The notes under the pieces are model-generated. The model saw only the letters and a program-made list of their open reading frames with translations. It was not told where the DNA came from and searched no databases. Below, in pieces: positions 15,362-48,061 of a DNA stretch of 57,161 nucleotides (the stretch's first letter is position 1; each line of letters starts with the position of its first letter). The position numbers and the translations under genes are program-made. The stretch comes from Candidatus Poseidoniaceae archaeon (GTDB lineage Archaea; Thermoplasmatota; Poseidoniia; Poseidoniales; Poseidoniaceae): the NCBI GenBank assembly GCA_938084455.1, contig CALKDX010000002.1:1-57161 (forward strand). The letters are read 5' to 3'.

Positions 15362-16056
15362 TCCTCCTCAGCCTGCATTGGGTCACCGATGATCAACCCG
15401 TCTTCCATCTGGAGGACACGATCGCAGAGTTCGGCAATTCTAGCATCGTGAGTCACGATGAGAAATGTCGTTTGATGTTCCTCGTTGATTCGTTTTAGGA
15501 GCGCTAGGACTTCTTCGGAAGTTTTCGAATCAAGGTTCCCTGTAGGTTCATCACACAGGATAACCGCTGGGCGGTGAACCACTGCACGAGCAACAGCAAC
15601 CCGCTGTTGCTGGCCACCAGAGAGTTCTGCGGGCCGATGTTGGCTGCGTTCAGCCAAACCGACGTCCGTGAGGGCCTGCATGGCACGCGACCGAGCCTCG
15701 CTCGCAGCAACCCCAAGCAAAAGCAAGGGCAATTCCACATTCTCCACCGCCGAGAGGACAGGCAGGAGATTGAAATCTTGGAAAATAAATCCGAGGTAAT
15801 TGGAACGCATTGTCGTTCTTTCATTGTCACTGACACCAAACAGAGGTCTGCCATCTACGAACACATCACCTGCACTCGGGACATCAATCCCACTCAGCAC
15901 ATTGAGCAGGGTGGTTTTGCCGCATCCCGATGGCCCCATGATCGCCACCATTTCACCAACCTTCAGAGTGACATCGACGCCCCGAACCGCTTCAACGGTT
16001 GAGGTCCCGGAAGCATAGAGTTTCCATACACCAGTGGCTTGCATTGAGGTGCTCAT
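15358..16056 (-). CDS. ABC transporter ATP-binding protein, LolD/MacB family
   Basis: Walker A GPSGCGKT, signature LSGGQQQRV, Walker B ILCDEPTGNLD, H-loop VTHD. Confidence 0.95.
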   Translation of the reverse strand: MSTSMQATGVWKLYASGTSTVEAVRGVDVTLKVGEMVAIMGPSGCGKTTLLNVLSGIDVPSAGDVFVDGRPLFGVSDNERTTMRSNYLGFIFQDFNLLPVLSAVENVELPLLLLGVAASEARSRAMQALTDVGLAERSQHRPAELSGGQQQRVAVARAVVHRPAVILCDEPTGNLDSKTSEEVLALLKRINEEHQTTFLIVTHDARIAELCDRVLQMEDGLIIGDPMQAEEE

Positions 16057-19543: not shown

Positions 19544-22500
19544 CTACCATCTTATCCTGTATGCAATCAATAATCCGCCAAGAATGGTTGGCACAAGGGC
19601 CATGGCCAATAATCCAAGAATCAAGCTCTGTACCTCACCCTCATCGTCCATTGCTTGAGGTTCGATTTCATCGGATGCAGTTTCGTTGCATGTGGTGACA
19701 AAGGGGTTGCATTCGATGCCGCTTTCTTCCTCTTCTGGTGTATCGTAATCCAAATCTTCTGTCAGGTCCTGGCACCCGTCTGCATCTGAGTCGGTGACGT
19801 TGTAAGATTGCCAATCCAAGTCGCCTTTTTGACACGAATCATCCAGATCAGTGACGCCATCATTGTCGTCATCGAGATCTTCTGTGGCGTCGCGGCATCC
19901 ATCGCCATCGTAGTCGAGCACGGAATCTGAAATCCAGTCCAGTTCCCCTACTGGACAGTTATCGTACAAATCTTCAACCCCGTCGTTATCATCATCAATG
20001 TCTTCAGTCAGGTCCTGACATCCATCAGAGTCATGATCTGTTGTTAAGTTTGATTCCCAGTTTAATTCACCATCGAGGCAGAAATCAACTGAATCCAAGA
20101 CAAGATCGTTATCGTCATCAAGATCTTCGAGTTGATCTTGACATCCATCCGAATCAAAATCCGTTAGGGAATTAGAAAACCAACCCAAATCCCCTGTAGG
20201 GCATTCATCGGTTATGTCCAAAACAAGGTCATTGTCGTCGTCGAGGTCTTCACCAGAATCCTGACAACCATCGCTGTCATAATCTGTTATGGGTGATGCA
20301 AGCCAATCGACATCCCCTGCACGACATTGGTCCAAGAGGTCGAGGATTCCATCGTTATCATCATCTGGGTCTTCAAGAAGGTCCAAACACCCATCTGAGT
20401 CCTTATCCAAGGTCGGAGAGGGAACCCAACCAACTGTTCCAAGAGGACATGTATCTTCCTCATCGGGATATGAATCATTGTCATCGTCTAAATCTTCATC
20501 ATCATCTCTACAGCCATCGCCGTCATGATCTGTCGCTTTGGTTGAACTCCAATTCACTGCACCCTTGCAGTCGTCAAAAATATCTGCGACTTTGTCATTA
20601 TCATCATCCGAATCCTCTGTTGCGTCCAAGCAACCATCGCCATCATAATCCAAAGTTGGGGATGATGTCCAATTTAAGGTACCAGATTTGCAAGAGTCGT
20701 AATCGTTCAATACCCCGTCATTGTCCCAATCATCGTCTTCATACGTGTCATAGCAGCCATCTTGGTCGTAATCAATGCCAGGTGTGGGCTCGGAAATCCA
20801 ACCAACGATTCCCTTCGGGCATGAATCCGCTTCATCAAGGATACCATCGTTATCGTCATCAGCATCTTCAACATCATCTTTGCATCCATCGGCATCGTGG
20901 TCCGTTCCTGATTCGGAAAGCCAATCAAGAATCGTGAACGGGCATAAATCGTTTGAATCGAACACACCATCATTGTCATCATCGACATCTTCCCCGGTGT
21001 CTTGGCAGCCGTCTGAATCAAAGTCGGTCTCAGCAGTTGGAGTCCATCCCACATCCCCTCGAGGACATGAATCTGCACCGTCAAAAATTGAATCGTTATC
21101 ATCATCAGTATCTTCCCCATCATCCCAGCAACCGTCGGCATCATGGTCTGTTGAAGGGCTGCTGATCCAGCCTAAATCTCCATAGTGGCAGTCATCGGAA
21201 ACATCGGGAACTTCATCATTGTCATCATCAAGGTCCTCTTCCATCGAAAAGAATCCGTTGTTCCACATGTCGTCCATACAGCCATCGCTGTCGTGATCAC
21301 CGAAGTTCGCAGAGGACCAGTTCCAGTGTGTAAATCTGGGGCAGAGATCATCGCTGTCAAGGACCCTGTCGTTATCGTCATCGAGGTCCTCCCCGACATC
21401 TCGGCAGCCGTCACCATCCCAGTCCGTAATCAGATTTTGATCAGGGTCCACGAACACTGAAATCCATCCAACATCACCTGTCTGACACGCATCGAGGTTA
21501 TCTGGCACCCCATCGTTGTCGTCATCGTTGTCTTCCGACGCATCATTGCATCCATCCGCATCGTGATCAGTGGTCGCATTTGAAGTCCAACCTAAATCTC
21601 CCGGCATGCATTGATCATCCACGTCGAGGATGAGATCATTGTCATCATCGTTGTCTTCTGTTGCGTCTCTACAGCCATCCGAATCATAATCATTGGCCGG
21701 ATTCGAAACCCAACCAAGTTCACCGAGGCGGCAATCGTCGTTCACGTCTGCCACGCCATCGTTATCGTCGTCTAAATCCTCTTGCGAATCTTGACAACCA
21801 TCGCTATCATAATCTGTTGCGTTAGATGAAACCCAACCGATGTCTCCTCGCACGCAAACATCCTCATTGTCGATGACTCCATCGTTGTCATCATCGGGAT
21901 CTTCTGTGAGGTCTTGGCAACCGTCCGAGTCGTAGTCATTGGCAGGGGTTGGCGTCCAGTTCATTTCCCCCTTTGGGCAGTTGTCGTTAAGATCAATGAC
22001 GCCGTCGTTATCATCATCCGTGTCTTCTAACGCATCTTGACAACCATCGCTGTCATAGTCGGTTGTACTATTTGATGTCCAACCAATGTCACCAGGGGTG
22101 CAATCATCCACGTTGTCTAAGTAGCCATCGTTATCATCGTCAGGATCCTCAGTGGAATCTCTACAACCATCACGGTCATGATCATTCGCAGTGGTGGAAG
22201 TCCACCCAAGTTCTCCGTACTGACAACGCTCATTGTCTTCCGAGAGTGTCCAATTACCGTCTAACCCTGCATCTGGAATGCCATCGTCGTCATCGTCAGA
22301 GTCGCATGGGTTCCCTGCGCCATCTGAATCATAATCCTCTTGTCCACTGTTGGAGTGATTGGGACAATTGTCGCTCGAATCTGAGACGCCATCATTGTCG
22401 TCATCTGCGTCTTCTGTGGAATCATTACAACCGTCGCCATCCCGGTCCGTGGCCCAGCTTACCGTCCATCCTAACGACCCTGTTGGGCACTCATCAGGAG

Positions 22501-24781: not shown

Positions 24782-24894
24782 GGAATCACCATATTCTCTA
24801 TCTGTTCTTTTGTCTCTGCTTCCACTTAGATGTATTGACAGGGTCGTCAACTCGGACGCAAAGAACTTCATGCCATAAACACCGACGAAGTGTT

Positions 24895-33509: not shown

Positions 33510-33959
33510 TCATACCAGGTTGAGGCTTCGTGCTGCAAGGTTGGTCACAACAAGAATTCCCAAAATCATCGAGGTCACCCTCAACGCGGTGTGCTCATGA
33601 GTGCCAGAATGTGCCTCACGAAGCAAAGCATAGCCAATCAGACCCAAGCCAATCGTTTGGAGCATTGTACCGATGGAAGTGACAACTCGGTCGAGATCGT
33701 TGTATCCATCCACATCTGAGAGGTATTCCGAAATGTCTTCCAACGTTGCTTCATCACCCAGTGCATCAGGAGGGCCCCACATGGTGACGACCTCTGAAAA
33801 TAGAGTTGCAGCGAGAATGAGGATGATTCCAATCATCAACCAACGCTCAAAGGAATAGGAAATTTTGGCCTTGTCGAAGCCTTGTGGGGGTTGATACGGC
33901 GACACAGGTGGAGGGGCAGTTTGGGCGGCAGTTCCGGGTGGAGGAGGTATGGCTTGCAT
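33510..33959 (-). CDS. Hypothetical membrane protein with Pro-rich N-terminus
   Basis: 149 aa, three hydrophobic segments. Confidence 0.75.
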   Translation of the reverse strand: MQAIPPPPGTAAQTAPPPVSPYQPPQGFDKAKISYSFERWLMIGIILILAATLFSEVVTMWGPPDALGDEATLEDISEYLSDVDGYNDLDRVVTSIGTMLQTIGLGLIGYALLREAHSGTHEHTALRVTSMILGILVVTNLAARSLNLV

Positions 33960-34004: not shown

Positions 34005-35807
34005 TCAAACTCCAAAGATTCCTGAAGCACTTTCAAGAACAACAGAAGTCAGGAATGAGGTGATTCCAGCAACCCAAAGCAATTGAATGGCTTGCCCAAG
34101 GGCCGTGATTTTTCCACCGCCACGTAACCGATTTGAGATCATTGAAACTGCTGCCACTTGGAACAACACCAAAATCGACACGACAATCTTGAACATTCGA
34201 ATGTTCTCCCCGACTGCAGATGCATCTTCCATAATTGGTAAAGCAAGATCTGAGCCAAAGCTAGAAAGCGCTGAGACATCGGTGTCGACAAATCCTTCGG
34301 CGACACCTGCAATTGAATCTCCCAGTTTCAAGACAATTGCAATGGTCACGTTGAGGCTGGTCACCGTTGCAATCAGTAAACCGAGCGCCACACCGCGCAT
34401 GGTGTTGGCAGACAGTGCACGGCGCCGGCGTAGGGAAAGTAAATTTCCAACCGAACGAGAAACCATCTCTGCAGTTCCTGCAGGTTGGCCAGAGGATTGT
34501 GACCCTTCGATGTAAATTCGGGTGTATCGAGAAATGACTGCAGAGTTTGTGTCTGCGGTAAAATAATCCCAAGCACGATCAGAGTTAATCCGAGTCGAAA
34601 GTCGCTTTTCCAAGCGGTCGATGGAATCATCCAGGACACCAAAGTCAATACCACGAAGGGCTTTGATGGTGGCCGATGGTTCAGCAGAGCGCGCTTGTGC
34701 AGTGCCTCCAAGAGCACGGATAAAATCTGGATAAGTTTCATCTCGACGCAGAACAGCGCTTTCTTCTCGGCCAACCATAAATGCTGGAATGAGCATAGGG
34801 GAAAGCGGGGCAGCAAAAAGAAGTAAACCGTACCGATCCCATTGGCTGCTGACCTCTTGCCAAGAAGCGAGGATGATAATTACGGTGATGAAGAGGAGAA
34901 GAATCGAAAGGAGTGAGGCACCAATGAGGGCCCTGAGAAAATTAATTCGAAACGGAGTGTCCATTTCGTCGCGTGCGAAGGTTGGGTCTTCTGGGATGGT
35001 CGAATTGAACGCATAGACCCCACCAACTTGGATAATGGTGAACAACAAACCCGCTAGCAAAAGAAACCGCATACGACTCGCCACTTCGATTGGAAGATCA
35101 CTTGCAGATCCAACTTCGAACAGCACCAAGTGAATTCCAGCAATCACAAGGCCAAACAATCCAGCAGATACCAGAGACACATAGATTTCCTTCATGGTGT
35201 CTACAGATTCAAGACGCGTGTCGTACAAGGTCGTGTACTGTTCTGCAATTGTTTCCTGTTCGGAACGCATGAACTCATCGATTGGTTGGCCTGCTTCAAT
35301 GGAAAACGCCATTCGATCAAGAAAATCCGCCCACAATGGAGACGGACTTTGTTGGGCCACGATTCGTGAAGCTTCCGGAAGCGACGTGTGCCACTTGTCC
35401 ACAAGCGTTTCAATCCGCTGAACTTCACTGGCTAACTCGCCATAATCCCTCATTTGTTTGAGGATGTCGAAAATAGACTGAGCACCAACTTCACCCAAAG
35501 AAAGGATGCCCATTCGAGTGATGAACATGTGCATTTCTTTCTCAATCAACGCTGCTGAGCGTTGAACATCGAGAAGGGGAAAAGCAATTGCTGCACCCCC
35601 TGCAAGAGTGGGAAGCAACACAAGAAGGAAGATCCCTGCGAAGCCGGAAAACAAGGCCCCTTCCGAAAGACCACCGGTGAGGAGAATGATGACAACTGCG
35701 GAGAAAAAGCCTGCAAAAGCGGCACCACCTACGAAGTAGCCAAGGAAATTCAAAATGGGCATTTCAAGACGCCGCAAAGCGATTTGCCACATCGACATTC
35801 GCTGCAT
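34005..35807 (-). CDS. flaJ: Archaellum membrane platform protein ArlJ/FlaJ (GspF-like)
   Basis: WHTSLPEASR..PSPLWADFLDRMAFSIEAGQ, YPDFIRALG, multi-TM; lies downstream of flaI. Confidence 0.9.
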   Translation of the reverse strand: MQRMSMWQIALRRLEMPILNFLGYFVGGAAFAGFFSAVVIILLTGGLSEGALFSGFAGIFLLVLLPTLAGGAAIAFPLLDVQRSAALIEKEMHMFITRMGILSLGEVGAQSIFDILKQMRDYGELASEVQRIETLVDKWHTSLPEASRIVAQQSPSPLWADFLDRMAFSIEAGQPIDEFMRSEQETIAEQYTTLYDTRLESVDTMKEIYVSLVSAGLFGLVIAGIHLVLFEVGSASDLPIEVASRMRFLLLAGLLFTIIQVGGVYAFNSTIPEDPTFARDEMDTPFRINFLRALIGASLLSILLLFITVIIILASWQEVSSQWDRYGLLLFAAPLSPMLIPAFMVGREESAVLRRDETYPDFIRALGGTAQARSAEPSATIKALRGIDFGVLDDSIDRLEKRLSTRINSDRAWDYFTADTNSAVISRYTRIYIEGSQSSGQPAGTAEMVSRSVGNLLSLRRRRALSANTMRGVALGLLIATVTSLNVTIAIVLKLGDSIAGVAEGFVDTDVSALSSFGSDLALPIMEDASAVGENIRMFKIVVSILVLFQVAAVSMISNRLRGGGKITALGQAIQLLWVAGITSFLTSVVLESASGIFGV

Positions 35808-35817
35808 CCATCATCCC

Positions 35818-37533
35818 TCACTCGTGATTGATGCCCTTCCATGAATCGACGGCACGGTCGAAGTGTTCCCAGCCGCTGTTGTAGTAGATTCCAAGCAGAT
35901 CAAACACGTCATCGTAATGGGTTAGGTCTCGATCAACCATTCGCTGGAGCGCTTCTGCCCTCTTGAGCATTTCATCGTAAATATCACGCTTGTTGGCAAA
36001 ACCTGCCATTGCAGCAATTTTGTTTTCAAGCAAATGGCTTTGGAACATTCCGCGGAAGTAGTGTTTATCCTTCACAGGATCCCATTCGAACATACCACGG
36101 GTTAACACACCGTCACTGTGTTTGTTGTATCCAATAACTTCGTCAATACCTGTAACACGCCGGGCGATTCCTCCCCCTGGTGCTTCGACGACCTCTTGGA
36201 AAATAGCGAAATTCAGGTTATCGAAGAAACGAATTGGAACATTGATTGGGTCGCCGGTAAACCGTTGAATCATCTTCACAATTGACGATGCGTGGAACGT
36301 CGCAATGACCGGGTGGCCCGTTTGCATTGCCTGGAATGCTGTCGCTCCTTCGACACCACGTATTTCACCGATGATGATGTAACGTGGCCGGCTACGCAAT
36401 GCTGCCTTGAGTAAATCGAACATTTCCACACGAGACTCTTCGTTCTTTGAGGAACGGGTCACCAATCGTTGCCAAATCTTGTGGCGCACCTTGACTTCAG
36501 GAGTGTCTTCTGCCGAGTAAATCTTGACATTGTGGTCAATAAAAGGGAGAATGGCATTGAGGGTTGTGGTTTTTCCAGATGCAGTTTCCCCGGACACAAG
36601 AACCGACATACCGTATTCAAGGCAAATCCAGATGTAGGCTGCGACCTGCGAAGAAATGGTCCCCCAAGCAATGAGTTGTGTGATGGAGATGGTTTCTTCA
36701 GCAAACTTACGAATGGTGAATGATGGTCCTAACATGGACACGTCATCGGAGAAAATGATGTTGATACGAGAGCCATCGAGCAATGCGCCATCAATGATTG
36801 GTTTGTTGTCCGAAACAGGACGCCCGATACGCTCAGACATTGCTCTGAGGAAACGGGAAAGAATTTCTCGGTCCCTAAAGCGAATGTTGGATGTCACCAT
36901 GCCGAACACCTTGTGATCCATGTGGACGTGTTTCAGGCCAATTGAGTGAATATCTTCCAGCATCTCATCAGAAAGAAGGGGTTCAAGCGGTCCGTTTCGA
37001 ATGAGGTCACGAATCACGATGTACTCCAAGCGTGTGCGCTGCTCTTGATTGACAACGAGCCGCCTGTCTTCTAGCCCCAGCATTTCCCAAAGACGCCCTT
37101 GGCGCCGAGGTGCGACACCGATTTCTGTATCGAGAACAGTGTAACGAGCAACCATCTGACGGAGGATGTTTTCAAACTCATTATCTGTTGTGAAGGATGG
37201 AGCAGCTGGTGCTTCTTGGAGGAGAGTTTCAGTTAATTCTCTACGAATGTTTTCTTCCTCTTCAGTGAGTTGAGGCTCAAGGCCAAACCACAAAATTTGG
37301 CCACCACCCTCTTCATCAGCAGGAGGTTCGTAAATGTGAATGAAAATTGGTTCTTTTGCAAGGTAAATGAGGTTGAGGGGGCGTTCCTTTTTGGCATCCC
37401 TGTCAAGTTCACCGTAGTAGATCGGGCGAGTCCCGTAGCGAGCCTCGAAATCACGAACCCAGTCTGCGACGTGTTGGTGGGCAGCCATGACCCCATTGAG
37501 GTCACCCTTTGCGAATGTAGGTTCATCTGACAT
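35818..37533 (-). CDS. flaI: Archaellum motor ATPase ArlI/FlaI
   Basis: GETASGKTT, AEDTPE, LRSRPRYIIIGEIRG, AMQTGH..TFHA. Confidence 0.95.
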   Translation of the reverse strand: MSDEPTFAKGDLNGVMAAHQHVADWVRDFEARYGTRPIYYGELDRDAKKERPLNLIYLAKEPIFIHIYEPPADEEGGGQILWFGLEPQLTEEEENIRRELTETLLQEAPAAPSFTTDNEFENILRQMVARYTVLDTEIGVAPRRQGRLWEMLGLEDRRLVVNQEQRTRLEYIVIRDLIRNGPLEPLLSDEMLEDIHSIGLKHVHMDHKVFGMVTSNIRFRDREILSRFLRAMSERIGRPVSDNKPIIDGALLDGSRINIIFSDDVSMLGPSFTIRKFAEETISITQLIAWGTISSQVAAYIWICLEYGMSVLVSGETASGKTTTLNAILPFIDHNVKIYSAEDTPEVKVRHKIWQRLVTRSSKNEESRVEMFDLLKAALRSRPRYIIIGEIRGVEGATAFQAMQTGHPVIATFHASSIVKMIQRFTGDPINVPIRFFDNLNFAIFQEVVEAPGGGIARRVTGIDEVIGYNKHSDGVLTRGMFEWDPVKDKHYFRGMFQSHLLENKIAAMAGFANKRDIYDEMLKRAEALQRMVDRDLTHYDDVFDLLGIYYNSGWEHFDRAVDSWKGINHE

Positions 37534-37547
37534 TCATGGTACCTCCT

Positions 37548-38276
37548 TCAACTGACCGCCGTGATGTCGACGATGAAGCCCATGCTCGGCTCAACACGCC
37601 ATCCAACAGAAGTTTGAACTGGGCCTGCAGCCCTCAAAAACCTCGTAACAACGATGTTTCTTTTGATTTCACCACCGATCATAGCGGTGGTGAGATCAAG
37701 AACAATTTCTGCTGATGCACGCAAAGTGTGCATCATTTTGTGGTCCATTTCGTCAGGGTCGACGCACAACATGAGCGAGCGACCATCGGCACAAATGCGA
37801 CGAAGCCGCTGCATCATGGTAAAACGTTGAGTTTCGTCGAGCGAATCAGGCATTAGTGAACTCGCTGCATCGATAATCACGACGTCTGCGAGTGCGATTG
37901 CCTCTGCTTCAAGCAGTTCGTTTAGCCCGACATCCGGTAGGGCTTCTGCAATAGTTCCAAAACGGGAGAAGACCATCAGTTGGCCTTCCCGAATGGCATC
38001 TGTGATACCGTAACCAATGGATTCCATTTGCTCAATCCAGCCGCGAGTCGTGAGTTCAGTTGTGATCACGAGTACTTTCACACCGTTTTCTACCATACCA
38101 TAGGCAAGTCGTTGTGAGATGAGTGATTTACCGCCACCCACTCCACCTTGGAGGACATACAAGGAACGGTTTGGTAACCGCAATCCCATGGAATCACCCA
38201 GGGAGTCTGTTTCCAAATCGAAAGGAAAACCGTCTTCTATCGGCTTGTGAGCCGTCAAAAATGGATCTTCCTTCAA
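37548..38276 (-). CDS. flaH: Archaellum accessory KaiC/RecA-like protein ArlH/FlaH
   Basis: GGVGGGKSLISQRLAYG, ITTELTT..QMESIG, WRVEPSMGFIVDI; TTG start overlaps the flaG stop. Confidence 0.9.
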   Translation of the reverse strand: MKEDPFLTAHKPIEDGFPFDLETDSLGDSMGLRLPNRSLYVLQGGVGGGKSLISQRLAYGMVENGVKVLVITTELTTRGWIEQMESIGYGITDAIREGQLMVFSRFGTIAEALPDVGLNELLEAEAIALADVVIIDAASSLMPDSLDETQRFTMMQRLRRICADGRSLMLCVDPDEMDHKMMHTLRASAEIVLDLTTAMIGGEIKRNIVVTRFLRAAGPVQTSVGWRVEPSMGFIVDITAVS

Positions 38277-38773: not shown

Positions 38774-39415
38774 TCAGAGCGTAGTACCTACTGTTGTACC
38801 GCCATAGGTGAAGGCAAGGCGGACATGGTTTGTAGGTGATAATTCCCAACGCAGATCAAGCGTTTCCCCAGAATACCAATACCCGCTGGACAAGCCAATT
38901 GGGTTTGATGCTGAGAGCGTTTGCGGATCTGTCCCATCGAGGAACAGCCAAACATCCTCGGTAGGGAGGGTGACTGCACCATCGTTGGTGATCACGGCAA
39001 AAACGTAAGTCTTCATGACGGGGGTAAGTGTTGCAGCAGCTGTAGGTGTCTGAGCGGGTGTTCCAAAAGAGATGACAGGAGTGGATGTCGAACAATCGCC
39101 GGTGCTGGTGATGGACACGGCGTCGATGACTCCATTGCTGTCAACTGTGAAACTTGCGCTAAATCCTGTACACGAGGACGCAACAAGGGTCCCGTTGACG
39201 TAATCTGTTCCTCCGTTCGTGATGGTGATGTCTTCAAGGGCGAAAAGCCAGATATCACTCGAATCAACGGTGAAACTCGGTAGAGGCTCAGCAGCGGATT
39301 CAATCGAATCCATTGAGGATTCAAACTGATTTCCAATCGTTTGAACGGCCATGGAAAACACGACCAATAACGATACCCCAATGATGAGGCCACCAATACC
39401 CACCGAGCCAGCCAT
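38774..39415 (-). CDS. flaF: Archaellum accessory protein ArlF/FlaF-like, with internal insertion
   Basis: N-terminal TM, ITNDGAVTL..VWLFLDG..YWYSGET motif; position upstream of flaG. Confidence 0.75.
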   Translation of the reverse strand: MAGSVGIGGLIIGVSLLVVFSMAVQTIGNQFESSMDSIESAAEPLPSFTVDSSDIWLFALEDITITNGGTDYVNGTLVASSCTGFSASFTVDSNGVIDAVSITSTGDCSTSTPVISFGTPAQTPTAAATLTPVMKTYVFAVITNDGAVTLPTEDVWLFLDGTDPQTLSASNPIGLSSGYWYSGETLDLRWELSPTNHVRLAFTYGGTTVGTTL

Positions 39416-39416
39416 T

Positions 39417-40250
39417 TCAGGCTCCACCTCGGAGAGAACTCACACTTCGCCAGGAACTGACGAGTGATGAGAACGTTAGCAAATCTTTGTGGGGCAGATG
39501 GTCATCAAGCGCAGCCTCGGCTTCACCGGGTGCTGCAAGTTGAACAATTGCCAGAACAGATCGACCTTCTTCGTCGTTCAGCATACCTGAAGACATGGCC
39601 TTCTGAGTGAAACTAACTGCCGCCATGCCAGACATGTTGTCGAGCAAGAGGGCAGAAACTGTCGGTGCGCCCACGCTGTTTCCAGCAGTGGTTGCGCCAT
39701 GCGATGGAGCGTGCAAGAATGGATTTGCAGCGAGAGCTTGCGCTTCGTACAATTCCACCAAGGGTGCTTCATCAACTTCCTTCAGTCGGTCGTTGCCTGT
39801 AACGGAGATCACTTCTCCGCTTGCGGTGACAATCATGTCTCCATCAAGCGCAGTTGGGTCGTCACCGTCTTCGGATGCCTCACCTTCTGCTGCGAGTGCT
39901 GCAGAGGGCGTCTCAAGACGAACTTCGACATTCCGAAGCACATCCTCGACCATGTCGAGGCGGCTGCTGATCATGCGTTCAAGTCCCGAGGTGTCAACTG
40001 TGGCGTTCACAGGAGAGGCAGGTGCTGGTGCGAGGCTTGCTGCAACGCTGGGCACACTGCCGATGCTGTTGAGGCGTGCTTTGGTAGGACCTGGAGAGAT
40101 GGTCCACGCATCTTCCTCGCCAAGTTCACCCTCTTCGGGAAGAGGGACTTGCTCAATAGCGATGTTCGCCATTATTTTGAGCCGATCTTCAGTGAGAGCC
40201 GCGTCTTCATCAATGTCCTCATTTGCACTGTTGCCAAATGGCCATGCCAT
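39417..40250 (-). CDS. Acidic cytoplasmic protein in the ArlC/D/E slot; possible divergent ArlD/E
   Basis: 277 aa; short coiled coil (LERMISSRLDMVEDVLRNVEVRLE); C-terminal LPHKDLLTFSSLV loosely recalls the ArlD/E C-terminal helix; operon position. Confidence 0.6.
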   Translation of the reverse strand: MAWPFGNSANEDIDEDAALTEDRLKIMANIAIEQVPLPEEGELGEEDAWTISPGPTKARLNSIGSVPSVAASLAPAPASPVNATVDTSGLERMISSRLDMVEDVLRNVEVRLETPSAALAAEGEASEDGDDPTALDGDMIVTASGEVISVTGNDRLKEVDEAPLVELYEAQALAANPFLHAPSHGATTAGNSVGAPTVSALLLDNMSGMAAVSFTQKAMSSGMLNDEEGRSVLAIVQLAAPGEAEAALDDHLPHKDLLTFSSLVSSWRSVSSLRGGA

Positions 40251-40300: not shown

Positions 40301-40867
40301 TCAAACAACCTTGGACCCAGCAGCTGTGGCACCCAAACTAAGGGTCTCAAAGGTGGTTCCTCCGGAGCCGACGTGGATGTAAGCTTGGACTGTGTTGCCG
40401 CTGCCTACGGTGGCAGCGGTACAATCCAGGCCTCCAGCAGCCGTACCGGAAAGGATCATTGTGTAACCGGTCGAGGGTTGCATGGTAGCAGCTGCTCCGC
40501 CAGTTCCGTCCATCAGTTCAACGGTTCCAACTGCGCCTTCAACTGGCAATGTACCTGGGCACATCAATTGGTAGGTGATTGAGTTGGTTGGGGCTGGCTC
40601 ACTGCCTGGTGCGAGACGCACATACAGTTTGTAGCCAGTGGTTCCGTCGACGTATGCGGCATTAATCATGACTTTACCAGCCATGTTGTCTGCGGTGTCG
40701 TCGCCAGTTTGTTGAGCGTTCTGTTGAAGCGCTTCAGCAGTCTGGATGATCACTGCTGCTGCAACTGCAGCAACAAGGATCAAAGCAATGAAGACGATCA
40801 TAGCGCCGATACCAATGGCAGCGACCTTGTCATCTTGGAATTCTTGATTGCGAGTGTTTGCCTTCAT
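40301..40867 (-). CDS. flaB: Archaellin (ArlB/FlaB) 2
   Basis: AIGIGAMIVFIALILVAAVAAAVIIQTAEALQQNAQQTG; LAPGS motif. Confidence 0.92.
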   Translation of the reverse strand: MKANTRNQEFQDDKVAAIGIGAMIVFIALILVAAVAAAVIIQTAEALQQNAQQTGDDTADNMAGKVMINAAYVDGTTGYKLYVRLAPGSEPAPTNSITYQLMCPGTLPVEGAVGTVELMDGTGGAAATMQPSTGYTMILSGTAAGGLDCTAATVGSGNTVQAYIHVGSGGTTFETLSLGATAAGSKVV

Positions 40868-41415
40868 ACAACCACCACTCCTCTGTCGACACTACCGCCG
40901 TAGCTGAGTAGTTCGTAAGTGAATCCACCGGATCCGGATTGAATCATGAATTCATTTGCGGTGTTTGCTGTTGGTGGGCAGTTGGTAGCACCAGCCAAGT
41001 TGAGCGTGATGCTGTAGGTCGAACCTGTGTTGAGGGTCACTGCGTTTCCGTTTGCGCCGACTTGGCTAGCGGTTGTGAAATCGCCAGCGTTTGAGTTTGC
41101 TCCACACTCAATTGCCCACATGACGTTTGCGGCAGTGATTGAATCAGAGCCGGGTGCGAGTTCAAATGTGACAAAGATCGATGTTGCAGGGTCTGCTGCA
41201 CCGGTTGTCACAATGCTCTTGATGAAGACCTTGGAGGCCAACAAATCTGTTGTTTCTTCACCGGTTGTCTGTGCGTTTTGTTGCAATTGCTCTGCAGTCT
41301 GAATAATGACTGCTGCTGCAACCGCCGCAACAAGAATCAGGGCAATGAAGACAATCATTGCACCAATACCAATTGCAGCGAGGTTATCGCTGTTTTCGTT
41401 CGTATTTTCTTTCAT
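40864..41415 (-). CDS. flaB: Archaellin (ArlB/FlaB) 1
   Basis: AIGIGAMIVFIALILVAAVAAAVIIQTAEQLQQNAQTTG; LAPGSD; start at the ATG after GGTGA (alternative 41427); ATGA overlap with the next archaellin. Confidence 0.92.
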   Translation of the reverse strand: MKENTNENSDNLAAIGIGAMIVFIALILVAAVAAAVIIQTAEQLQQNAQTTGEETTDLLASKVFIKSIVTTGAADPATSIFVTFELAPGSDSITAANVMWAIECGANSNAGDFTTASQVGANGNAVTLNTGSTYSITLNLAGATNCPPTANTANEFMIQSGSGGFTYELLSYGGSVDRGVVVV

Positions 41416-41474
41416 ATTTTTCACCATTTTTTGTTTTTTTTTGTATCCCCCACGTAGGGTGGAATTGGAGTGGT

Positions 41475-42536
41475 TCAGGCGTTGCCTCCCGAACCGATTT
41501 TGATGCGCAGAGGCATGCGAATAAGAGCGACTTCATCTGGTGCGAGACGATTGATGAAGGGAACCTTAGGTGTTGTAAACCCGGGCGGTATCCACGGCGA
41601 TAGCACGATGTCTTGCAGTGGCTCCATGGACCGGTTTTGCGCACGAATGGTGGCTGTGATTTCACCTGTACGCATTTCGTATGAGGTTGCAATGGCGAGT
41701 TTTCTCGACAAAGGAATTTCATCCGCTCCATACCTTCGGTTTGCTTTGACTTCAAACCGAAGCGGTAGGTTGCCACCAGGTGCAATGATTGGAAGGTCAA
41801 CCGATGAAGGAACGCAAGTCCAGCCCTCCGGCACAGGAGGGGCGAGTCGCATGTTTGGCATGGCAACTGGGCCATCGTTGATGATTCGCACGATCAACAC
41901 GCCTTCATCGCCACCAGCAGGCCATCGAGTGTCAAGGCCGAGCCAGAAGTGTCGGAATAAGAAGGGATTGAGGGTGGATGTGTTGCCACCAATCAGGTCA
42001 TCGACAAGGTGCTCGACTTCGCCTGCAGCGATGGCTACATCGCCAATTTCTGCTGCACCGGTTGCAGAACGCAAACGCAGCAGAATCGTTTCCACTTCCG
42101 ACTCGTTAATTTTTTTCTCGCTCAAGAGTCGGTGGAGCATAGCGATGTTTCTGCGCAAATGAAGAACATCTTCCTCAAGCAGTGCAAGCGATTGTTCGGC
42201 TTTCTTGACCGACTTGCGGGCCTTTCGAAGGTTGTGGGTGTTGAGGAATTGCTTTGCGTCAGCGATGTCAACTTCGGTACCCGCTAACGAATTGCCCTCA
42301 TCTTGTATGACGCCAAAGACAAGCGATTCGAGTTCTCTTGATGCAGAAATTAAACGGTCTGCAGAATCTTTGCTTGCTGCAATAGCAGCCCGTGCTTCCT
42401 CTACTTCACCCTCAGACATCTCTGTGGTTGTCGCCATCGATTCGCCCAATTCCGCATCAGGAACATCGAACCCTGCATCGACTTCGTCGAGCAGCATATC
42501 TGGGTCGTCAATGACGTCAACATCTTGCTTAGACAT
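41475..42536 (-). CDS. Hypothetical cytoplasmic protein: acidic/coiled-coil N-half plus Ig-like (NEW3-like) C-terminal domains
   Basis: 353 aa, no signal peptide; IINDG..VPEGW..IAPGG and AQNRS..IPPGF..LAPDE beta-sandwich motifs; overlaps the upstream gene by 8 nt. Confidence 0.8.
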   Translation of the reverse strand: MSKQDVDVIDDPDMLLDEVDAGFDVPDAELGESMATTTEMSEGEVEEARAAIAASKDSADRLISASRELESLVFGVIQDEGNSLAGTEVDIADAKQFLNTHNLRKARKSVKKAEQSLALLEEDVLHLRRNIAMLHRLLSEKKINESEVETILLRLRSATGAAEIGDVAIAAGEVEHLVDDLIGGNTSTLNPFLFRHFWLGLDTRWPAGGDEGVLIVRIINDGPVAMPNMRLAPPVPEGWTCVPSSVDLPIIAPGGNLPLRFEVKANRRYGADEIPLSRKLAIATSYEMRTGEITATIRAQNRSMEPLQDIVLSPWIPPGFTTPKVPFINRLAPDEVALIRMPLRIKIGSGGNA

Positions 42537-45500
42537 CGTCGTTCACCTCCTCTGTTGAAGCCTCACCTGAAACGATGGAACCAACGGTTGCAGTACCGGA
42601 GAGTTCTCCAAAGATTTCGTCCAAATCCAAGCCATCATTTGCCAGTTCGTTGAACAGGCGTGCCGGGTCGCCAAGGTCGCGTTCAATGCGAGTGGCCTTG
42701 ACTTCGATGTCCGTCAAACGACCGTAGAGATTACCATACGCACGGTCAGCGCGGAGAATGATCATCCAAACGCCGAGCATGACAATCGTGACATAAACGA
42801 CCACTGAAACGAGGTTGTTTTGGTCGTTGTAGATTTGTGGAGGTAGCCCGAGGACAACCGCCAAGAATCCCAACACCGGCACAGCAAGAATGACGCTGAG
42901 TTGTCTTCTGCTGTCGCGTAGAGCGTCGAAGTGATCCGCATAGAGCGTGGAAACGCCACGACGGGCTCTTTGGTAATCTTCGTGAATGAGTTTGAACTCT
43001 TCAGCACTGGCCCAACTCATTCGCCAAATCCAAAGGGCTGCGAGGAAAAGCACGGAAAGCCCCCAGAATGGTAAATCGAGGACATGGAACGCGAAGCCGA
43101 ACCCAAGCACACCGGAGTAGACCGATAGAAGGCGGAATTTCTCATTTTGACCTGTTAAGCGCAAAAGAATGAACGATGTGAGGAAACAAATGATGAGTGC
43201 AATGAAGCTCGTAGATACCCCTGGGGATGACGATTCAACATCAAGTTCAATGGTTCGAACGTCATTGCCTACAACGTTCTTTGCCATGTACACCGCATCG
43301 ACGGTTGCTGTGCAGGTTGTAGATTGGGATTGAATCCACCAGTCGATGGCATTGGGTTGAATGACCCATGTGAGTTCTACCGATTGGCCCGGTCCAAGCA
43401 GACCAATCATTGGTCCGTCACTCGGGTTTGTTGGAATATTGATAATCACTGCGTCAGGGCATTCAAGCGCCACATCGATGCCGATTGCTGATGCCGTACC
43501 GGCGTTGAGCACGGTTAGCGTTAGGTCGTATTCTTCACCCTCAGCAAGACTCACCTCACCCATTGCTTCGACCAGTGGATCTGCAAAGACATCCAAGGCA
43601 AAACTGAACGTTTCCGGGTCGAAATTCGAGTAATTGGCGTTCTCGGTCGGATGGTACAAACGGAATTCCAAGTCCCATCCATCGCCAGAGAGGATGTTTG
43701 GACGAACGGGGGTTTGGACTCGAATCTTAATCGGATTGGTTGTGTCCCACGCACTGCGTTCTGGCAGAGAAATTCTGGCCGCCTCGCCTTGGGTACCAGA
43801 GGCACACGAAGAGGATTCAAGCGGCAAGGTGATTTCCGTGTTGTTGGCATCTGGAAGGATGACTGTGAATGACCATGGGTAGTCCGCCTCATTCAGGTTC
43901 AACGAACTGAAGTCCAGCATGCGGGTAGCGCCGCACAATTCAAGCTCATAGGCAGCGCTCAATGCTTGGCCGTTTGGAATGTGAGAATACGTGAGGTCGA
44001 TGTCCAATGGAGGGTCACCGACCTCCGGTCGAAGTACAATTTCCCCGGTGCTGAAGAACCGAGACATCATGAGTTGAGTTGCGAACGAGGCGTTTCCTTC
44101 GACCAATGCATCGCTTGGCTGATAGTAGATCTTGAAGTCAGCAGTTGTCGACAAATCGGGTTCGAAATTCAGAGCCTCGACGCTGAAGATATGAGTCACA
44201 GGGACGCCAATTGGCAATGTAAGTGTGGTTGGGGCGTCTGAGACCATTGCCCAATCGGTCGATTGGATGGTCAGCCCGGGTGCATTGATGACGTAACCGA
44301 CTTGAACCTCAACATCTCGATTTCCAGTGTTGAGCAGCGAAACTTCCCATGTTCGTGTGCCTTGGCGATAAAATTCCATTTCTGTAGGCCAGTCTTCTAC
44401 TTCCAAGGTGAACAACGCACCAACTCTGAGTTGAATCACCACGCTTGTTTTGAAGGCTGAAGAATCAGCATCATACACTGAGATTGTCAAATTGTGCACT
44501 GAACCATCGAGCAGCGTTGTCTCGCCACCGAGGCTTGGAACGCTCACAACAACCTGCCCTGCGATGGTTTGATTGATCGATAATGTCATGCCGATTTCAC
44601 TGACATCGGTTGACCATTCGCCTTCAACAGTAGGCTTGACAATCACCGACTCCTGAAGGTTGCCAATGTTGGTCACATTGAACTCAACCATGGTCATTTC
44701 ACCGGGTGTGACGGCAACGACCTGAGGACCTTCGACTTGAATATCAGAACTCTTGGTGATGTTGGCAGTAATGTTTGCAGACATGTTGACGACGCCGCTT
44801 GAATCTTCGACCCAAACAGTGGTGACGTAGTTTTGGTCAGCACTGGCTGTGGAGGATGGTGTGGCCCTCACCTTGATGATGTCCTCGTAATTTGGGGCGA
44901 TTAACATCGATGGATTCGAATCAAGTTCGAACATTACGTCGCCTGCTTCACTGTTGTCAAGCCAGACATAGAATGTCGTTGGAGCGTTTCCAGTGTTTGT
45001 GATCTTGATGGTCTTGAATTCGCCCACATCAGTGGGTGCTAACGATAGAGTTTGGGTCAGCGGGAAAAGAGTCCCATTGCGGATTTCACCAACCCGAATT
45101 GGCAGAATGTGTTCGGTAATGATTTCGCCTGTGTCTCGGTGTTCAACCGTGAGGGTGAGTGGGATAATCGAATTTGCTGGAACAAAGGGGTCGGTTGTAA
45201 TCAGCAACTCAACAATGGTTTTGTGAGCGCCTCCGACATCTGGATGATCAGCAACATCCGCGGAGAGGTTATCGATTGTGTCAGTGGTTCCATTGAATTC
45301 AACGGTCCAATCGCTTGGTACATCTGCCACTCGCAATCTGTAAGAAGTAAGGTCGTTTCCGGTGTTTGCCAGTTGGAAGGCCACGGGCGTTTGGACACCG
45401 ACCATCACATCGACCGGTCCGTCTTCGAGAATATCCGCTCCATAGACGGTTGGAATGATGATTGACAAGTTCCTTGTGACAGGAGTGGCGCCAACGCCGC

Positions 45501-47448
45501 TACCAGTGTGCACGCCACCAAGGGAGGGCGTCACAGTAACTGAGAGGGTGAGCGTACCTGCTAACGGATAGTCATCATCAGGGCCTTGAATGGCGAGGAT
45601 TGCCGGTTGGGTATCGCCCGGGCGCAGTCCGGTCAAACTTGGTGGAGAAACTGAGGCAGACCAACGTTCTGCTTCGGTGAACCCGCCAGTGTTTGCTGCT
45701 AGGAATGAAATGCTCGATACCACAACTTCAGCGGAGAGTGTTTCATCGATGTTGGAATACAAATTGTGTCGGACCTCGACATCAAGCGACAAGATGTCTT
45801 CGAGGCCTTGGCCGTTTCTTGCCGCAATTACATCTTCTGCAGTTAGGGTCAATTCCTCAACAGGCAAACCTGGGTCAACCACAATCGTTGGAAGGACTTC
45901 GATGTTGGAGGAGTTTTGAACCGGGAGGCCGCCACCATTTGCTTGAACCTGCAACCAAACTTGGAGCGGTTGGCCTGCCAGATTGAATTCGCCAGGGTTC
46001 AATGGGCTCTTGATGGGTGGAACCTTAATGTCAATTGGAACTTGAATCGTTTGAGAACGATTGATGTACATCGAAACCTCTTCGCATGGCTCACCTTGGA
46101 GATCCAACACCCAATTCACCGCAGCCACGGAAAGCCCGCAATCGAAGGTGAATTCGCCGCCTACATTCCCCTCATTGGTGATGTTGGCCATCACCGAGGC
46201 TGAAACGCCTGGTTTGAGCATTGTCGTGGTGCTGGGCATTTCTATTGATGCAAGGTAGGACTCGCCGGCTTGGACGACAGCGGTTGTCACCAGAGTGTAT
46301 CCGTCTTGAAGCGACAAAAGAGTGAGTGTGATGGTAGTGGCATTGGTCCTGTTTTCATCCACTGGAACCGTTACGGCAATGGCGATCGAGGTCGTGGCGC
46401 CTGGAGCAATCGTAGAGGTGGATGTGGTGACAAGTGAGGTGTCGGCCCAACTCCGACTGATGGGCGAAGCGCTGATCGATTGTATGCGATAGGAATCCAT
46501 CAAGGCACCTGTGTTCTTCAGAAGGAATGTGAGGGTTCCCGTTTGACCTGGTTCGATGGAACGGTCGCCCAGCGAAGACAAGGAGGCCGTATAATTGGAG
46601 AATCGTGCCGTGAATGAATCAACAGTTTCGTTGTAATTCCACATTGTACCGTTGTAGGTCACCGTGAATGTCATGTCCCAGAGACCACTAAAAGTCGAAG
46701 AATCGAACGAGTAGGTCAGGTTCTCAACGCCCGAGGCAGAAAACAGGGACCCCGCTTCAAGCGTCTGAGTGTTCGACCAGAAAGTGAAGGAAGTGGAGGG
46801 GTCGTTCGAATCGGTCACGGTCAGATTCATCACTGCTGAGATTGTTTTCACCCCAGCATTTCGAACCGAGACATTGAATGTCTTCATGGAGCGAGTGATG
46901 CCAATTTCTGTTTCACCGGGTGAAATGTCTGGGAGGTTGTCATCGGTTGTGATCCCGCTGTGGTTGTTCTTGACATCGAAATCTTTGCGTTGTTCGTTGT
47001 TGCCGGGGTTGCTATCACCTGCGCCCGAGACACGGGCAAAGAGCGTTTGAGCGTCCCCGGTGGTTGCTGTCCAAGGAATAACGATTGGATTGGAGGTTGT
47101 GAGCGCAGGAATGGACCCAAGGGCGATGGTCGTTACGATGTATTCGCCAGAAGTGGGCGAGCCTTTGTGAACGAGTTGCAGGGAAGCGCTTCCGCTCAAG
47201 TCGCCTGTGTTTCGAACGACAACCCGCACATCATGTTCTGCTGGTTCAAGATAAATTCCAACCCCGCGGTCAATCGATCCTGCCCCGCTAAAGGTCAGGA
47301 GCGTGACACCGAAGTCAGGTGCCGCCCTGCCCGAAGTTTGAGCGCCACTGCTTCCAATCAGGGGAGTGGCCATTGGGACCAAGAAGAGAATCACTAACGC
47401 TAAAGCAAGCTTTGTCGTTGAGGAACGGTGTTCACGCAGAGGCTTCAC
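42529..47448 (-). CDS. About 1640-aa membrane-anchored protein with tandem CARDB/NEW3-like Ig domains and a C-terminal multi-TM domain
   Basis: Repeated N(T/E/I/A)G(N/D) and PG(Q/E) Ig motifs; signal-like KLALALVILFLVPMATPL; about 5 C-terminal TMs plus a cytoplasmic tail; start reassigned to the GTG at 47448 (CTG 47439 also possible) because the track start overlaps another gene. Confidence 0.85.
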   Translation of the reverse strand: MKPLREHRSSTTKLALALVILFLVPMATPLIGSSGAQTSGRAAPDFGVTLLTFSGAGSIDRGVGIYLEPAEHDVRVVVRNTGDLSGSASLQLVHKGSPTSGEYIVTTIALGSIPALTTSNPIVIPWTATTGDAQTLFARVSGAGDSNPGNNEQRKDFDVKNNHSGITTDDNLPDISPGETEIGITRSMKTFNVSVRNAGVKTISAVMNLTVTDSNDPSTSFTFWSNTQTLEAGSLFSASGVENLTYSFDSSTFSGLWDMTFTVTYNGTMWNYNETVDSFTARFSNYTASLSSLGDRSIEPGQTGTLTFLLKNTGALMDSYRIQSISASPISRSWADTSLVTTSTSTIAPGATTSIAIAVTVPVDENRTNATTITLTLLSLQDGYTLVTTAVVQAGESYLASIEMPSTTTMLKPGVSASVMANITNEGNVGGEFTFDCGLSVAAVNWVLDLQGEPCEEVSMYINRSQTIQVPIDIKVPPIKSPLNPGEFNLAGQPLQVWLQVQANGGGLPVQNSSNIEVLPTIVVDPGLPVEELTLTAEDVIAARNGQGLEDILSLDVEVRHNLYSNIDETLSAEVVVSSISFLAANTGGFTEAERWSASVSPPSLTGLRPGDTQPAILAIQGPDDDYPLAGTLTLSVTVTPSLGGVHTGSGVGATPVTRNLSIIIPTVYGADILEDGPVDVMVGVQTPVAFQLANTGNDLTSYRLRVADVPSDWTVEFNGTTDTIDNLSADVADHPDVGGAHKTIVELLITTDPFVPANSIIPLTLTVEHRDTGEIITEHILPIRVGEIRNGTLFPLTQTLSLAPTDVGEFKTIKITNTGNAPTTFYVWLDNSEAGDVMFELDSNPSMLIAPNYEDIIKVRATPSSTASADQNYVTTVWVEDSSGVVNMSANITANITKSSDIQVEGPQVVAVTPGEMTMVEFNVTNIGNLQESVIVKPTVEGEWSTDVSEIGMTLSINQTIAGQVVVSVPSLGGETTLLDGSVHNLTISVYDADSSAFKTSVVIQLRVGALFTLEVEDWPTEMEFYRQGTRTWEVSLLNTGNRDVEVQVGYVINAPGLTIQSTDWAMVSDAPTTLTLPIGVPVTHIFSVEALNFEPDLSTTADFKIYYQPSDALVEGNASFATQLMMSRFFSTGEIVLRPEVGDPPLDIDLTYSHIPNGQALSAAYELELCGATRMLDFSSLNLNEADYPWSFTVILPDANNTEITLPLESSSCASGTQGEAARISLPERSAWDTTNPIKIRVQTPVRPNILSGDGWDLEFRLYHPTENANYSNFDPETFSFALDVFADPLVEAMGEVSLAEGEEYDLTLTVLNAGTASAIGIDVALECPDAVIINIPTNPSDGPMIGLLGPGQSVELTWVIQPNAIDWWIQSQSTTCTATVDAVYMAKNVVGNDVRTIELDVESSSPGVSTSFIALIICFLTSFILLRLTGQNEKFRLLSVYSGVLGFGFAFHVLDLPFWGLSVLFLAALWIWRMSWASAEEFKLIHEDYQRARRGVSTLYADHFDALRDSRRQLSVILAVPVLGFLAVVLGLPPQIYNDQNNLVSVVVYVTIVMLGVWMIILRADRAYGNLYGRLTDIEVKATRIERDLGDPARLFNELANDGLDLDEIFGELSGTATVGSIVSGEASTEEVNDDV

Positions 47449-47863
47449 CTCCCGGTTTTTCAAAGCGGTCAATGGTGACTCGCTTGCCTTGTGACTTCCA
47501 CTGCAGCAGCAATTGGTGGAGAAGGCGATCATGCTCTTGCTCTGAAATCCCCAAACGACGTCGCTCCTCCCAAAGAAGCAGTTGTTCAGTGCGCGTGAGC
47601 AAGGCGTCGCGAAGGTAGAGTTCGAGGGTCCGCCGATAGGCGTCCCGATCTGATATCGCATAGACAATGGTGTCTCCGGGCAACTGATCGGCACGGTGCT
47701 GAATCAAGTTACCCAGCGTTAGGGCCTCATCGTAAGACACGTTTCTTTTGTCCAAATCAGTTTGAATCGAGCTGGCTATGGCCTGTAGATCAAACTTGGT
47801 CGTCACACGCTGTATGCGCTTGAAGTACCGACGAGAACGTCGAGACATACGCGATGCGACCAT
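47432..47863 (-). CDS. Hypothetical protein with ENT/TerB-like helical motif
   Basis: AYRRTLELYLRDALLTRTEQLLLWEERRRLGISEQEHDRLL; TATA-like TTCAATAA 21 nt upstream. Confidence 0.78.
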   Translation of the reverse strand: MVASRMSRRSRRYFKRIQRVTTKFDLQAIASSIQTDLDKRNVSYDEALTLGNLIQHRADQLPGDTIVYAISDRDAYRRTLELYLRDALLTRTEQLLLWEERRRLGISEQEHDRLLHQLLLQWKSQGKRVTIDRFEKPGGEASA

Positions 47864-48061
47864 GCCTCTTCGTTTACCTGCCGGTTATTGAAAGAATCGG
47901 TCACCATTAGAGGTTCTACTACATGTGAATCGACATCTATGCATCCCGCATAAAACGCTCACAGAGTGTGATTTTAACCACGAAAGACTCGCAAAACAAG
48001 GTCAAATACCTCCAAATTGCAAAAAGCAACCCTTCTTGATGTACCAGCGGTTGCACAAACC

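Follow-up and report, generated by a model that had tools for sequence, protein, structure and literature searches.

S-layer-like proteins with immunoglobulin (Ig) folds have been described in archaellum (arl) loci of Methanococcales (arCOG05057) and Thermococcales, and the authors propose, in the text available, that the S-layer is modified locally where the filament passes the envelope (PMC13705601, PLoS Genet 2026). The accessible part of Gaines et al. 2025 (PMC12448462) treats the anchoring of ArlF/G as an open matter for Thermoplasmatales that have no S-layer. For Marine Group II (MGII) archaea, the available account of a putative motility operon mentions "Several orthologous proteins lacking annotations" that are syntenic and conserved between subclades (Tully 2019, PMC6336850). 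Here we describe three uncharacterised genes, for proteins of 143 amino acids (aa) (p143), 1639 aa (the large protein) and 353 aa (p353), that lie directly ahead of an arl cluster in a 57,161-nucleotide (nt) stretch of contig CALKDX010000002.1 (the window); as far as the published description goes, they are very probably the genes left unannotated by Tully 2019. Names of homologues place the organism in the Poseidoniaceae, that is, in MGII, and the window belongs to a 1.93-Mb assembly of 131 contigs that is 85% complete.

New here are the co-occurrence of the large gene and p353 with ArlJ, the slot of this pair ahead of the archaellins, and its recurrence in other Thermoplasmatota families; our literature search, outside supplementary tables, found no description of a membrane-spanning protein with a coupled cytoplasmic partner or of a spread in Thermoplasmatota. 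We put at about even the chance that the two proteins encoded by this pair serve the archaellum as a trans-envelope accessory or anchor module, one that is specific to part of the Thermoplasmatota. An earlier reading of the window, made from its letters and open reading frames (ORFs) (the sequence-only reading), had suggested such a role for all three genes. Families, genera, genomes and loci are given working labels (f, g, G and L) where they have to be told apart.

The large gene and p353 track archaellum genes across Poseidoniales genera

By the ORF reading of the window, a minus-strand gene run continues without interruption from 47863 to 33510, in the order p143, large gene, p353, arlB1, arlB2, p277, ArlF-like, ArlG-like, arlH, arlI, arlJ and a gene for a 149-aa membrane protein (Table 1). 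Archaellins, ArlF/G, ArlH, ArlI and ArlJ are all found in this one locus, which makes it an arl cluster, and its flanks are housekeeping genes (a divergent AhpC/TSA peroxiredoxin gene upstream, endonuclease III and PolX downstream). The sequence-only reading had placed three overlapping minus-strand ORFs ahead of the archaellin, and both the coordinates and the overlaps agree: with the starts chosen here, p143 and the large gene share 17 nt, and the large gene and p353 share 8 nt. From p353 to the archaellin gene the gap is 47 nt to the first ATG (41427) and 59 nt to the second (41415); the second has the conserved GGTGA and matches the "~60 nt" first reported.

We searched one evenly drawn sample of 151 Poseidoniales genomes from 22 genera. 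p353 was present in 92 genomes, the large protein's C-terminal membrane module in 94 and ArlJ in 95. p353 and ArlJ occurred in the same 14 of 22 genera (72-73 of the 74 genomes of f1), and the module occurred in those 14, with one weak match in g14. Across the 51 genomes of the 8 arl-less genera there was no p353, no ArlJ and a single weak large-protein match (E 4e-4), so that the module was found in 93 of 100 genomes of arl-bearing genera (window's genome included) versus 1 of 51 in the others. Wherever listed places were compared, the module adjoined the p353 gene. The order large gene, p353, archaellin(s), p277 and on to arlJ was kept in 16/16 loci from 15 genera, and the distance from the large gene to p353 was -20 to +4 nt in 14 of 17 loci (window counted), the three outliers being doubtful start choices. 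Trees of p353 and ArlI were broadly congruent, and pairwise identities of p353 and ArlJ varied together (Pearson 0.95 over 136 pairs), both of which would fit joint vertical descent.

The linkage to the arl cluster first claimed for the whole trio was borne out for the pair (14 genera with ArlJ, 16/16 loci) and is looser for p143, which was not found in g17 (0/9) or g22 (0/3), two genera with both the pair and arl genes. In this sample, by co-occurrence as by synteny, the pair was neither commonly unlinked from arl genes nor commonly present without them. We rejected the idea that the lineage uses the large protein as a general S-layer or wall component, because the protein's presence tracks the arl genes.

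The pair precedes archaellins in other Thermoplasmatota families

The p353 profile gave weak Ig-domain matches in other Thermoplasmatota families, and the surrounding DNA was arranged as in Poseidoniales. The gene for a 1300-1540-aa protein, which bears a signal peptide and, towards its C-terminus, five transmembrane (TM) helices, overlaps the gene for a 330-410-aa soluble protein, and then come an archaellin, an ArlD-type protein, ArlF, ArlG, ArlH, ArlI and ArlJ. The p353 proteins of different families are only 16-21% identical, and their homology extends over 255 columns that include both the helical and the Ig parts (hhalign probability 98.7%, E 2e-16). Homology across families is also supported for the membrane modules (hhalign 94.1%, E 1.2e-7, 243 columns), a value to be read with the care that matches between TM regions need.

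In a phylum sample of 301 genomes searched with a combined profile, 28 non-Poseidoniales genomes had a full-length p353-family match (E <= 2.3e-42). When these were cross-matched by hand, 24 had ArlH on the same contig within ~5 kb and two more (G169 and G300) had ArlD/E beside the match, which brings those with adjacent arl genes to 26 of 28; in G303 and G218, arl genes were on contigs other than that of the match. Shorter matches confined to the Ig domain, in f8, f23 and f25, did not lie beside arl genes and were excluded as members. In one non-Poseidoniales genome we also observed that an ArlC/D fusion is followed by two 640-715-aa proteins with N-terminal hydrophobic segments and PKD domains (L040:2934-7085, minus strand), one of them with a weak Arch_flagellin match; arlH is on another contig there, the cluster being split.

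The ArlD/E domain PF04659 was found in pair-bearing clusters of f19 (22/24) and also of f11, f36 and f46, where the pair coexists with ArlC/D/E. We had considered the trio as a replacement of ArlCDE, and dropped this since PF04659 occurs in the same clusters. The sequence-only reading had proposed that the trio stands in for ArlF/G, the polar cap or the che link, and this did not survive either: the window contains ArlF/G-like genes, and beyond Poseidoniales the pair stands alongside ArlC/D/E.

It is very improbable that the two genes are neighbours without a shared function, merely conserved beside the arl cluster. Such a reading draws on the fairly conserved flanking genes of MGIIa, as given in the available text of Tully 2019 (PMC6336850). 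It does not account for the match in presence and absence between the pair and the arl genes across 22 genera, for the overlap of the large gene and p353 reading frames, or for the order large gene, p353, archaellin being shared by distant families whose flanks differ.

The large protein combines Ig repeats with a conserved membrane module

The large protein was first described as a ~1640-aa Ig-repeat protein with about five TM helices and a tail, and this description holds in its particulars. Its N-terminus is a hydrophobic signal segment (by hydropathy), and ten x-x-x-N-x-G motifs of the CARDB/NPCBM_assoc type, ~110 aa apart, indicate at least ten Ig repeats. Pfam NPCBM_assoc scored 39.3 bits (cut-off 24.4) and FixG_C 27.0 (cut-off 25.6), and CARDB is listed on homologues; with a score above the gathering threshold as well as repeats, it belongs with CARDB/NPCBM_assoc-type Ig repeat surface proteins. 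The protein contains 25 N-X-S/T sequons, versus 14.75 +/- 3.2 in shuffles. Residues ~1050-1300 are a non-repeat region, after which come the last Ig domain, the TM helices and the tail.

At the C-terminus, four hydrophobic windows exceed the threshold and one is weaker; five are clear in non-Poseidoniales homologues. The tail has 74 residues with a net charge of -10, and would lie in the cytoplasm because an odd number of helices follows the exported ectodomain. A conserved loop between helices 3 and 4 (EFxxIHEDYQRARxGxST), predicted to be cytoplasmic, and a conserved tail motif (YGxLYGRLTDxExKAxRIExDLGDPARL) are among the best-kept stretches of the protein (0.34-0.37, vs 0.20-0.32 for most of the ectodomain). 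As a whole the protein evolves fast, with 42% identity within a genus where ArlJ keeps 82%. Every source-given name among 334 homologues of its C-terminal part is "hypothetical" or "uncharacterized membrane protein", and a sequence search against solved structures found no relative.

These features bear on the main rival explanation, which we regard as possible but less likely than not: that the large protein is a co-regulated surface adhesin, made with archaella for attachment to particles, with p353 and p143 as its cytoplasmic anchor or regulators, and that it neither braces the archaellum nor is part of the machine. Ig/CARDB repeats, sequon enrichment and a fast-diverging ectodomain are typical of adhesins, and the existence of arl-bearing families without the pair implies that the machine can work without it. 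Rinke et al. posit, in the text available, an adhesion role for the MGII operon, with che genes missing (PMC6461757); we did not find CheF or CheW here either. From an adhesin, however, one would not expect the same slot ahead of the archaellins, together with an overlapping partner gene, across families whose p353 proteins have diverged so far, nor absence from all 8 arl-less genera, and a five-helix module with conserved cytoplasmic loops exceeds the needs of a simple anchor.

p353 has the features of a soluble protein

The AlphaFold2 (AF2) model of p353 (predicted local distance difference test score, pLDDT, 76.9) begins with a disordered N-terminus (acidic, with a charge of -14 over residues 1-45), continues with five helices (42-182) and ends in one or more beta-sandwiches (197-345). 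No family member has a TM-like window (maximum 19-residue Kyte-Doolittle mean 1.48), and p353 is by these sequence properties a soluble protein. The first description of it as a cytoplasmic coiled-coil/Ig protein agrees with this combination of a helical bundle and a beta-sandwich. The window copy scored 19.6 bits with NPCBM_assoc, below the cut-off of 24.4, and 13 of 16 orthologues match that family at E <= 1 (best 1.1e-5). Foldseek returned generic Ig/PapD/MSP-like matches only (E 3e-4 to 1e-3, low TM-scores), and a fold search returned helical hairpins at Z <= 8.6; neither the fold searches nor sequence searches against solved structures gave a relative with known function. A derivation of the p353 Ig domain from the repeats of the large protein was tried and rejected (hhalign probability 4.7%, no sign of descent), and a "COG1470" lead ended with one paper that uses the label generically for adhesion.

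We consider it unlikely, though not negligibly so, that p353 is a cytoplasmic motor scaffold, a counterpart of ArlX or ArlC forming a ring or cap around ArlH/I, with the large protein mainly as its anchor and the ectodomain secondary. Its solubility, long helical region and protein-binding beta-sandwich would suit this role, an NPF-type motif after the helical part is common to p353, p277 and ArlD-like proteins, and the ArlD/E domain (PF04659) was detected neither in the window's genome nor in 63 Poseidoniales genomes (f1 0/42, f3 0/21). Pfam FlaC_arch (PF05377) and Arch_fla_DE (PF04659), on the other side, match none of the family members (0/16 and 0/6). The coexistence of the pair with ArlC/D/E outside Poseidoniales speaks for an addition and not a substitute, and an ectodomain of 1400 residues is difficult to account for in a secondary role. 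An NCBIfam scan of p353 gave no ArlX match, in a library for which the presence of an ArlX model is uncertain.

p143 is a Poseidoniales-only addition to the pair

The AF2 model of p143 has six helices (pLDDT 83.6). Mean column identity is 72% over 12 orthologues, the N-terminus is basic (+8 in residues 1-25), and no family member has a TM-like window (maximum 19-residue Kyte-Doolittle mean 0.63). The window copy matches 0 Pfam families, and ENT or TerB matched 0/12 orthologues at E <= 10. A profile search of 1.84 billion representatives gave 68 proteins, in which full-length p143 is confined to Poseidoniales and the distant proteins match only residues ~70-123. Among those distant matches, 24 of the 26 scanned carry ENT and/or TerB, often fused to winged helix-turn-helix (wHTH) domains or TPR, and in several the domain is above cut-off (ENT 39.4 bits in P0279, TerB 39.1 bits in P0289). 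A language-model search pointed in the ENT/TerB direction as well (0.84-0.88, a lead only). The p143 model aligned with the ENT domain of EMSY (1utu, Z 6.9 over 67 residues, root-mean-square deviation (rmsd) 5.1), with 2fmm (Z 6.9, 77 aligned, rmsd 3.3) and with 5zx1 (Z 6.5, 69 aligned, rmsd 3.0), all within the noise for helical models; Foldseek found nothing at E <= 0.001 and the other structure comparison stayed at Z <= 7.9. The C-terminal half of p143 is probably an ENT/TerB-type helical module by this transitive route, through its distant matches. The first label for p143, "ENT/TerB-like", was right in kind on the same grounds, and a direct Pfam assignment did not follow from any of the orthologues.

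Full-length p143 was found in 83 of the 151 Poseidoniales genomes: the window's genome, 72 of 74 in f1, one in f2 and nine in f3 (genera g16, g18 and g20). In loci that carry p143, its reading frame shares 1-32 nt with that of the large gene; in genus g18 a 1015-aa coiled-coil ORF separates the two (L024:53-3100, plus strand). p143 is a looser, Poseidoniales-only add-on and not an obligatory third member. Elsewhere in the window's genome, contig C32 encodes a 360-aa protein that is paralogous to the p143 C-terminal module, contains a zinc ribbon and matches ENT weakly (E 0.057; L051:1741-2823, minus strand). Its gene adjoins an MreB/Salactin-like actin gene; ORFs of ~350 aa that resemble this paralogue occur across Poseidoniales, arl-less genera included.

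Candidate promoters and transcription of the run

The promoter-like box first reported ahead of p143 turned out to be part of a conserved motif resembling a B recognition element (BRE) and TATA box, CGATTCTTTCAATAAC, which would act as a promoter. It lies 22-38 nt upstream of the p143 ATG, is kept with variants in MGIIa loci L013-L020 and L028, and by its position would suit a transcript with a short leader or none. MGIIa loci also keep a partly palindromic TTATGC...GCATA-like motif (47935-47960, minus strand) ~75-95 nt upstream of the p143 start, within the spacer that separates p143 from the divergent AhpC gene; it may bind a regulator or serve as the promoter of that gene.

Between p353 and arlB1, TTCCACCC followed by a G-run and an A-rich stretch (41440-41470, minus strand) is kept in MGIIa loci. 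A hairpin formed by TTCCACCC...GGGGGA after p353 was rejected (z -0.41 alone; over 8 loci, 3 pairs and -0.83 kcal/mol). The region of TTCCACCC could be a promoter or a binding site, and a separate archaellin promoter is possible in the A-rich spacer. For arlB1 itself, the second ATG is the more likely start, to judge from a GGTGA 6-8 nt ahead of it that is conserved across genera and from one relative that has no first ATG.

Contigs from RNA libraries of two studies (X1, X2 and X5) bridge the p143/large gene junction, and X5 also bridges the large gene/p353 junction; DNA carry-over is possible in such libraries. No contig from four RNA-library runs joins 41443-41507, the archaellin contigs ending at 41300, 41442, 41323 and 41392. 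This neither supports nor refutes a single transcript into the archaellins, because contigs cannot show transcript ends or levels.

Archaellum genes and other features of the window

The coordinates of the features discussed are collected in Table 1.

Table 1 Features of the arl locus in the window, from the upstream motif to the last gene of the run
Feature	Position	Strand	Description
BRE/TATA-like motif CGATTCTTTCAATAAC	47899-47884	minus	contains box 47885-47892; putative promoter
p143	47863..47432	minus	143-aa ORF
Large gene	open from 47694; GTG 47448 to 42529	minus	1639 aa from signal-peptide-compatible GTG
C-terminal membrane module of large protein, residues ~1410-1639	42529..43221	minus	hydropathy, window conservation, consensus
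p353	42536..41475	minus	353-aa ORF
p353-arlB1 spacer	41416..41474	minus	TTCCACCC motif, A-rich run, GGTGA Shine-Dalgarno of arlB1
arlB1 (probable start 41415) and arlB2	40301..41427 (41427/41415-40864; 40867-40301)	minus	Pfam Arch_flagellin 7.2e-18, 4.4e-19
p277	39417..40250	minus	conserved soluble protein in ArlC/D position of other clusters
ArlF-like	38774-39427	minus	NCBIfam ArlF 8e-5, below curated cut-off
ArlG-like, 163 aa	38273-38764	minus	NCBIfam ArlG 6.3e-13, below curated cut-off; Pfam Arch_flagellin 1.5e-8
arlH, arlI, arlJ	34005..38276	minus	NCBIfam ArlH 1.9e-52 (below curated cut-off), KaiC-type ATPase; Pfam T2SSE 5.9e-37, T2SSF 1.4e-11
149-aa membrane protein after arlJ	33510-33959	minus	proline-rich N-terminus; no Pfam/NCBIfam match

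p277 was present in 16/16 loci. The window copy had no Pfam or NCBIfam match, and FlaC_arch was found in 2/14 family members, at E 0.24 only. An identification of p277 as ArlD was rejected, as hhalign against ArlD-like proteins gave 1.5% and only a short LYE..NPF motif is common to them. The 149-aa protein recurs behind arlJ in three loci of the same genus (L013, L014 and L028), with weaker matches in L015 and L017. That the locus lacks che genes, as first noted, accords with the wider search: the window's genome (85% complete) yielded neither CheF nor CheW, 5 relatives that are 92-97% complete yielded no CheW, and the available texts of PMC6461757 and PMC6864105 likewise report the absence of che genes from MGII. 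In at least 15 relatives' genomes, p353 lies within ~200-900 nt of a contig end on the archaellin side; archaellin genes thus tend to be where assemblies end, as would fit genes that are duplicated or hypervariable.

Away from the cluster, three more giant ORFs on the minus strand have no Pfam match at E <= 1e-5 and may encode further large surface proteins of this archaeon (1-7014, 2338 aa, running off the window; 7435-10518, 1027 aa; 19544-24871, 1775 aa). An unusually long FtsX/MacB-type permease of 1534 aa is encoded at 10757-16056 (minus strand), with an overlapping ABC ATPase gene just upstream.

Discussion

In the trans-envelope module that we propose, the large protein would be exported, its ~11 Ig-type domains standing outside the cell as a glycosylated stalk or sheet and its ~5 helices anchoring it in the membrane as a bundle. 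p353, produced from the overlapping frame, would hold the conserved loop and tail that the large protein exposes to the cytoplasm. On the outer side, the array could serve as an envelope mount, a collar or a local wall patch for the ArlF/G stator and the passage of the filament; on the inner side, p353 could be a cytoplasmic clasp or tie to the motor. p143, where present, might act as an adaptor that docks, through its basic N-terminus, onto one of two acidic stretches, the large protein's tail or the N-terminus of p353. A bolder version, which we advance only tentatively, is that the pair is a new class of structural component: a dedicated trans-envelope mount in which the Ig array receives the ArlF/G stator or forms a collar for the filament, and in which the parts clasped by p353 tie the mount to the motor or to a polar cap. 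If true, a mount of this kind would account for the resistance to torque in those Thermoplasmatota lineages that have no canonical S-layer.

Several points weigh against an anchor module. In f16, every genome has ArlH (35/35) and none has a p353-family match (0/35), and in f10 the counts were 8/9 and 0/9; the pair is dispensable for an archaellum as such, because many arl-bearing Thermoplasmatota do not have it. Cultured motile Thermoplasmatales have an eight-gene operon, arlB to arlJ, without such genes, according to the accessible part of PMC12448462. Neither protein of the pair has a relative of known function, and the fast divergence of the ectodomain (42% vs 82% for ArlJ) fits an exposed adhesin equally. 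The co-variation of identities and the congruence of trees are expected for any vertically inherited genes. Finally, for Poseidoniales an "anchor in place of an S-layer" is conjecture.

It is an open question, above all where a crystalline S-layer is absent, how an archaellum is braced against its own torque and what structures surround its base (PMC12448462, in the text available). A pair of proteins that would span the membrane with a large outer and a conserved inner part, and that follows arl clusters across Thermoplasmatota families, is a testable candidate for such bracing. The pair is relevant, too, to the question of whether marine Group II archaea, which are very abundant, swim or stick, and the module would provide a first lineage-specific handle on the machine. 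Were the large protein only an adhesin, the pair would still mark a surface protein that one of the most common surface-ocean archaea makes together with its archaella.

Among known systems, the carriers of ENT/TerB modules (Pfam PF03735 and PF05099) that are fused to archaeal wHTH regulators resemble p143 in its residues ~70-123. In contrast to those fusions, p143 stands alone, has a basic N-terminal helix pair, lies below Pfam detection and is found at full length only in Poseidoniales. With respect to the operon as a whole, the published account of Tully 2019 gives, in the text available, no domain analysis, topology, link beyond MGII or functional proposal. The arCOG05057-type proteins share with the large protein, when compared by description only, that each is a large multi-Ig extracellular protein in or next to an arl cluster, while the available description of them mentions no five-helix module, coupled cytoplasmic partner gene or Thermoplasmatota.

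Closer to the machine itself, the ArlF/ArlG stator, with its S-layer anchor, is extracellular and directed at the envelope, and the proposed module would act on the same side of the membrane. ArlF/G are small and archaellin-like and are present here too, whereas the large protein is not archaellin-like and has about five membrane passes. For p353, the nearest comparison is with the helical or coiled-coil proteins around the motor, ArlX in Thermoproteota and ArlC/D/E in Euryarchaeota, to which its helical part is comparable. ArlX has a TM helix and p353 has none; unlike ArlC/D/E, p353 matches neither FlaC_arch nor Arch_fla_DE, carries a beta-sandwich, and coexists with ArlC/D/E in other families.

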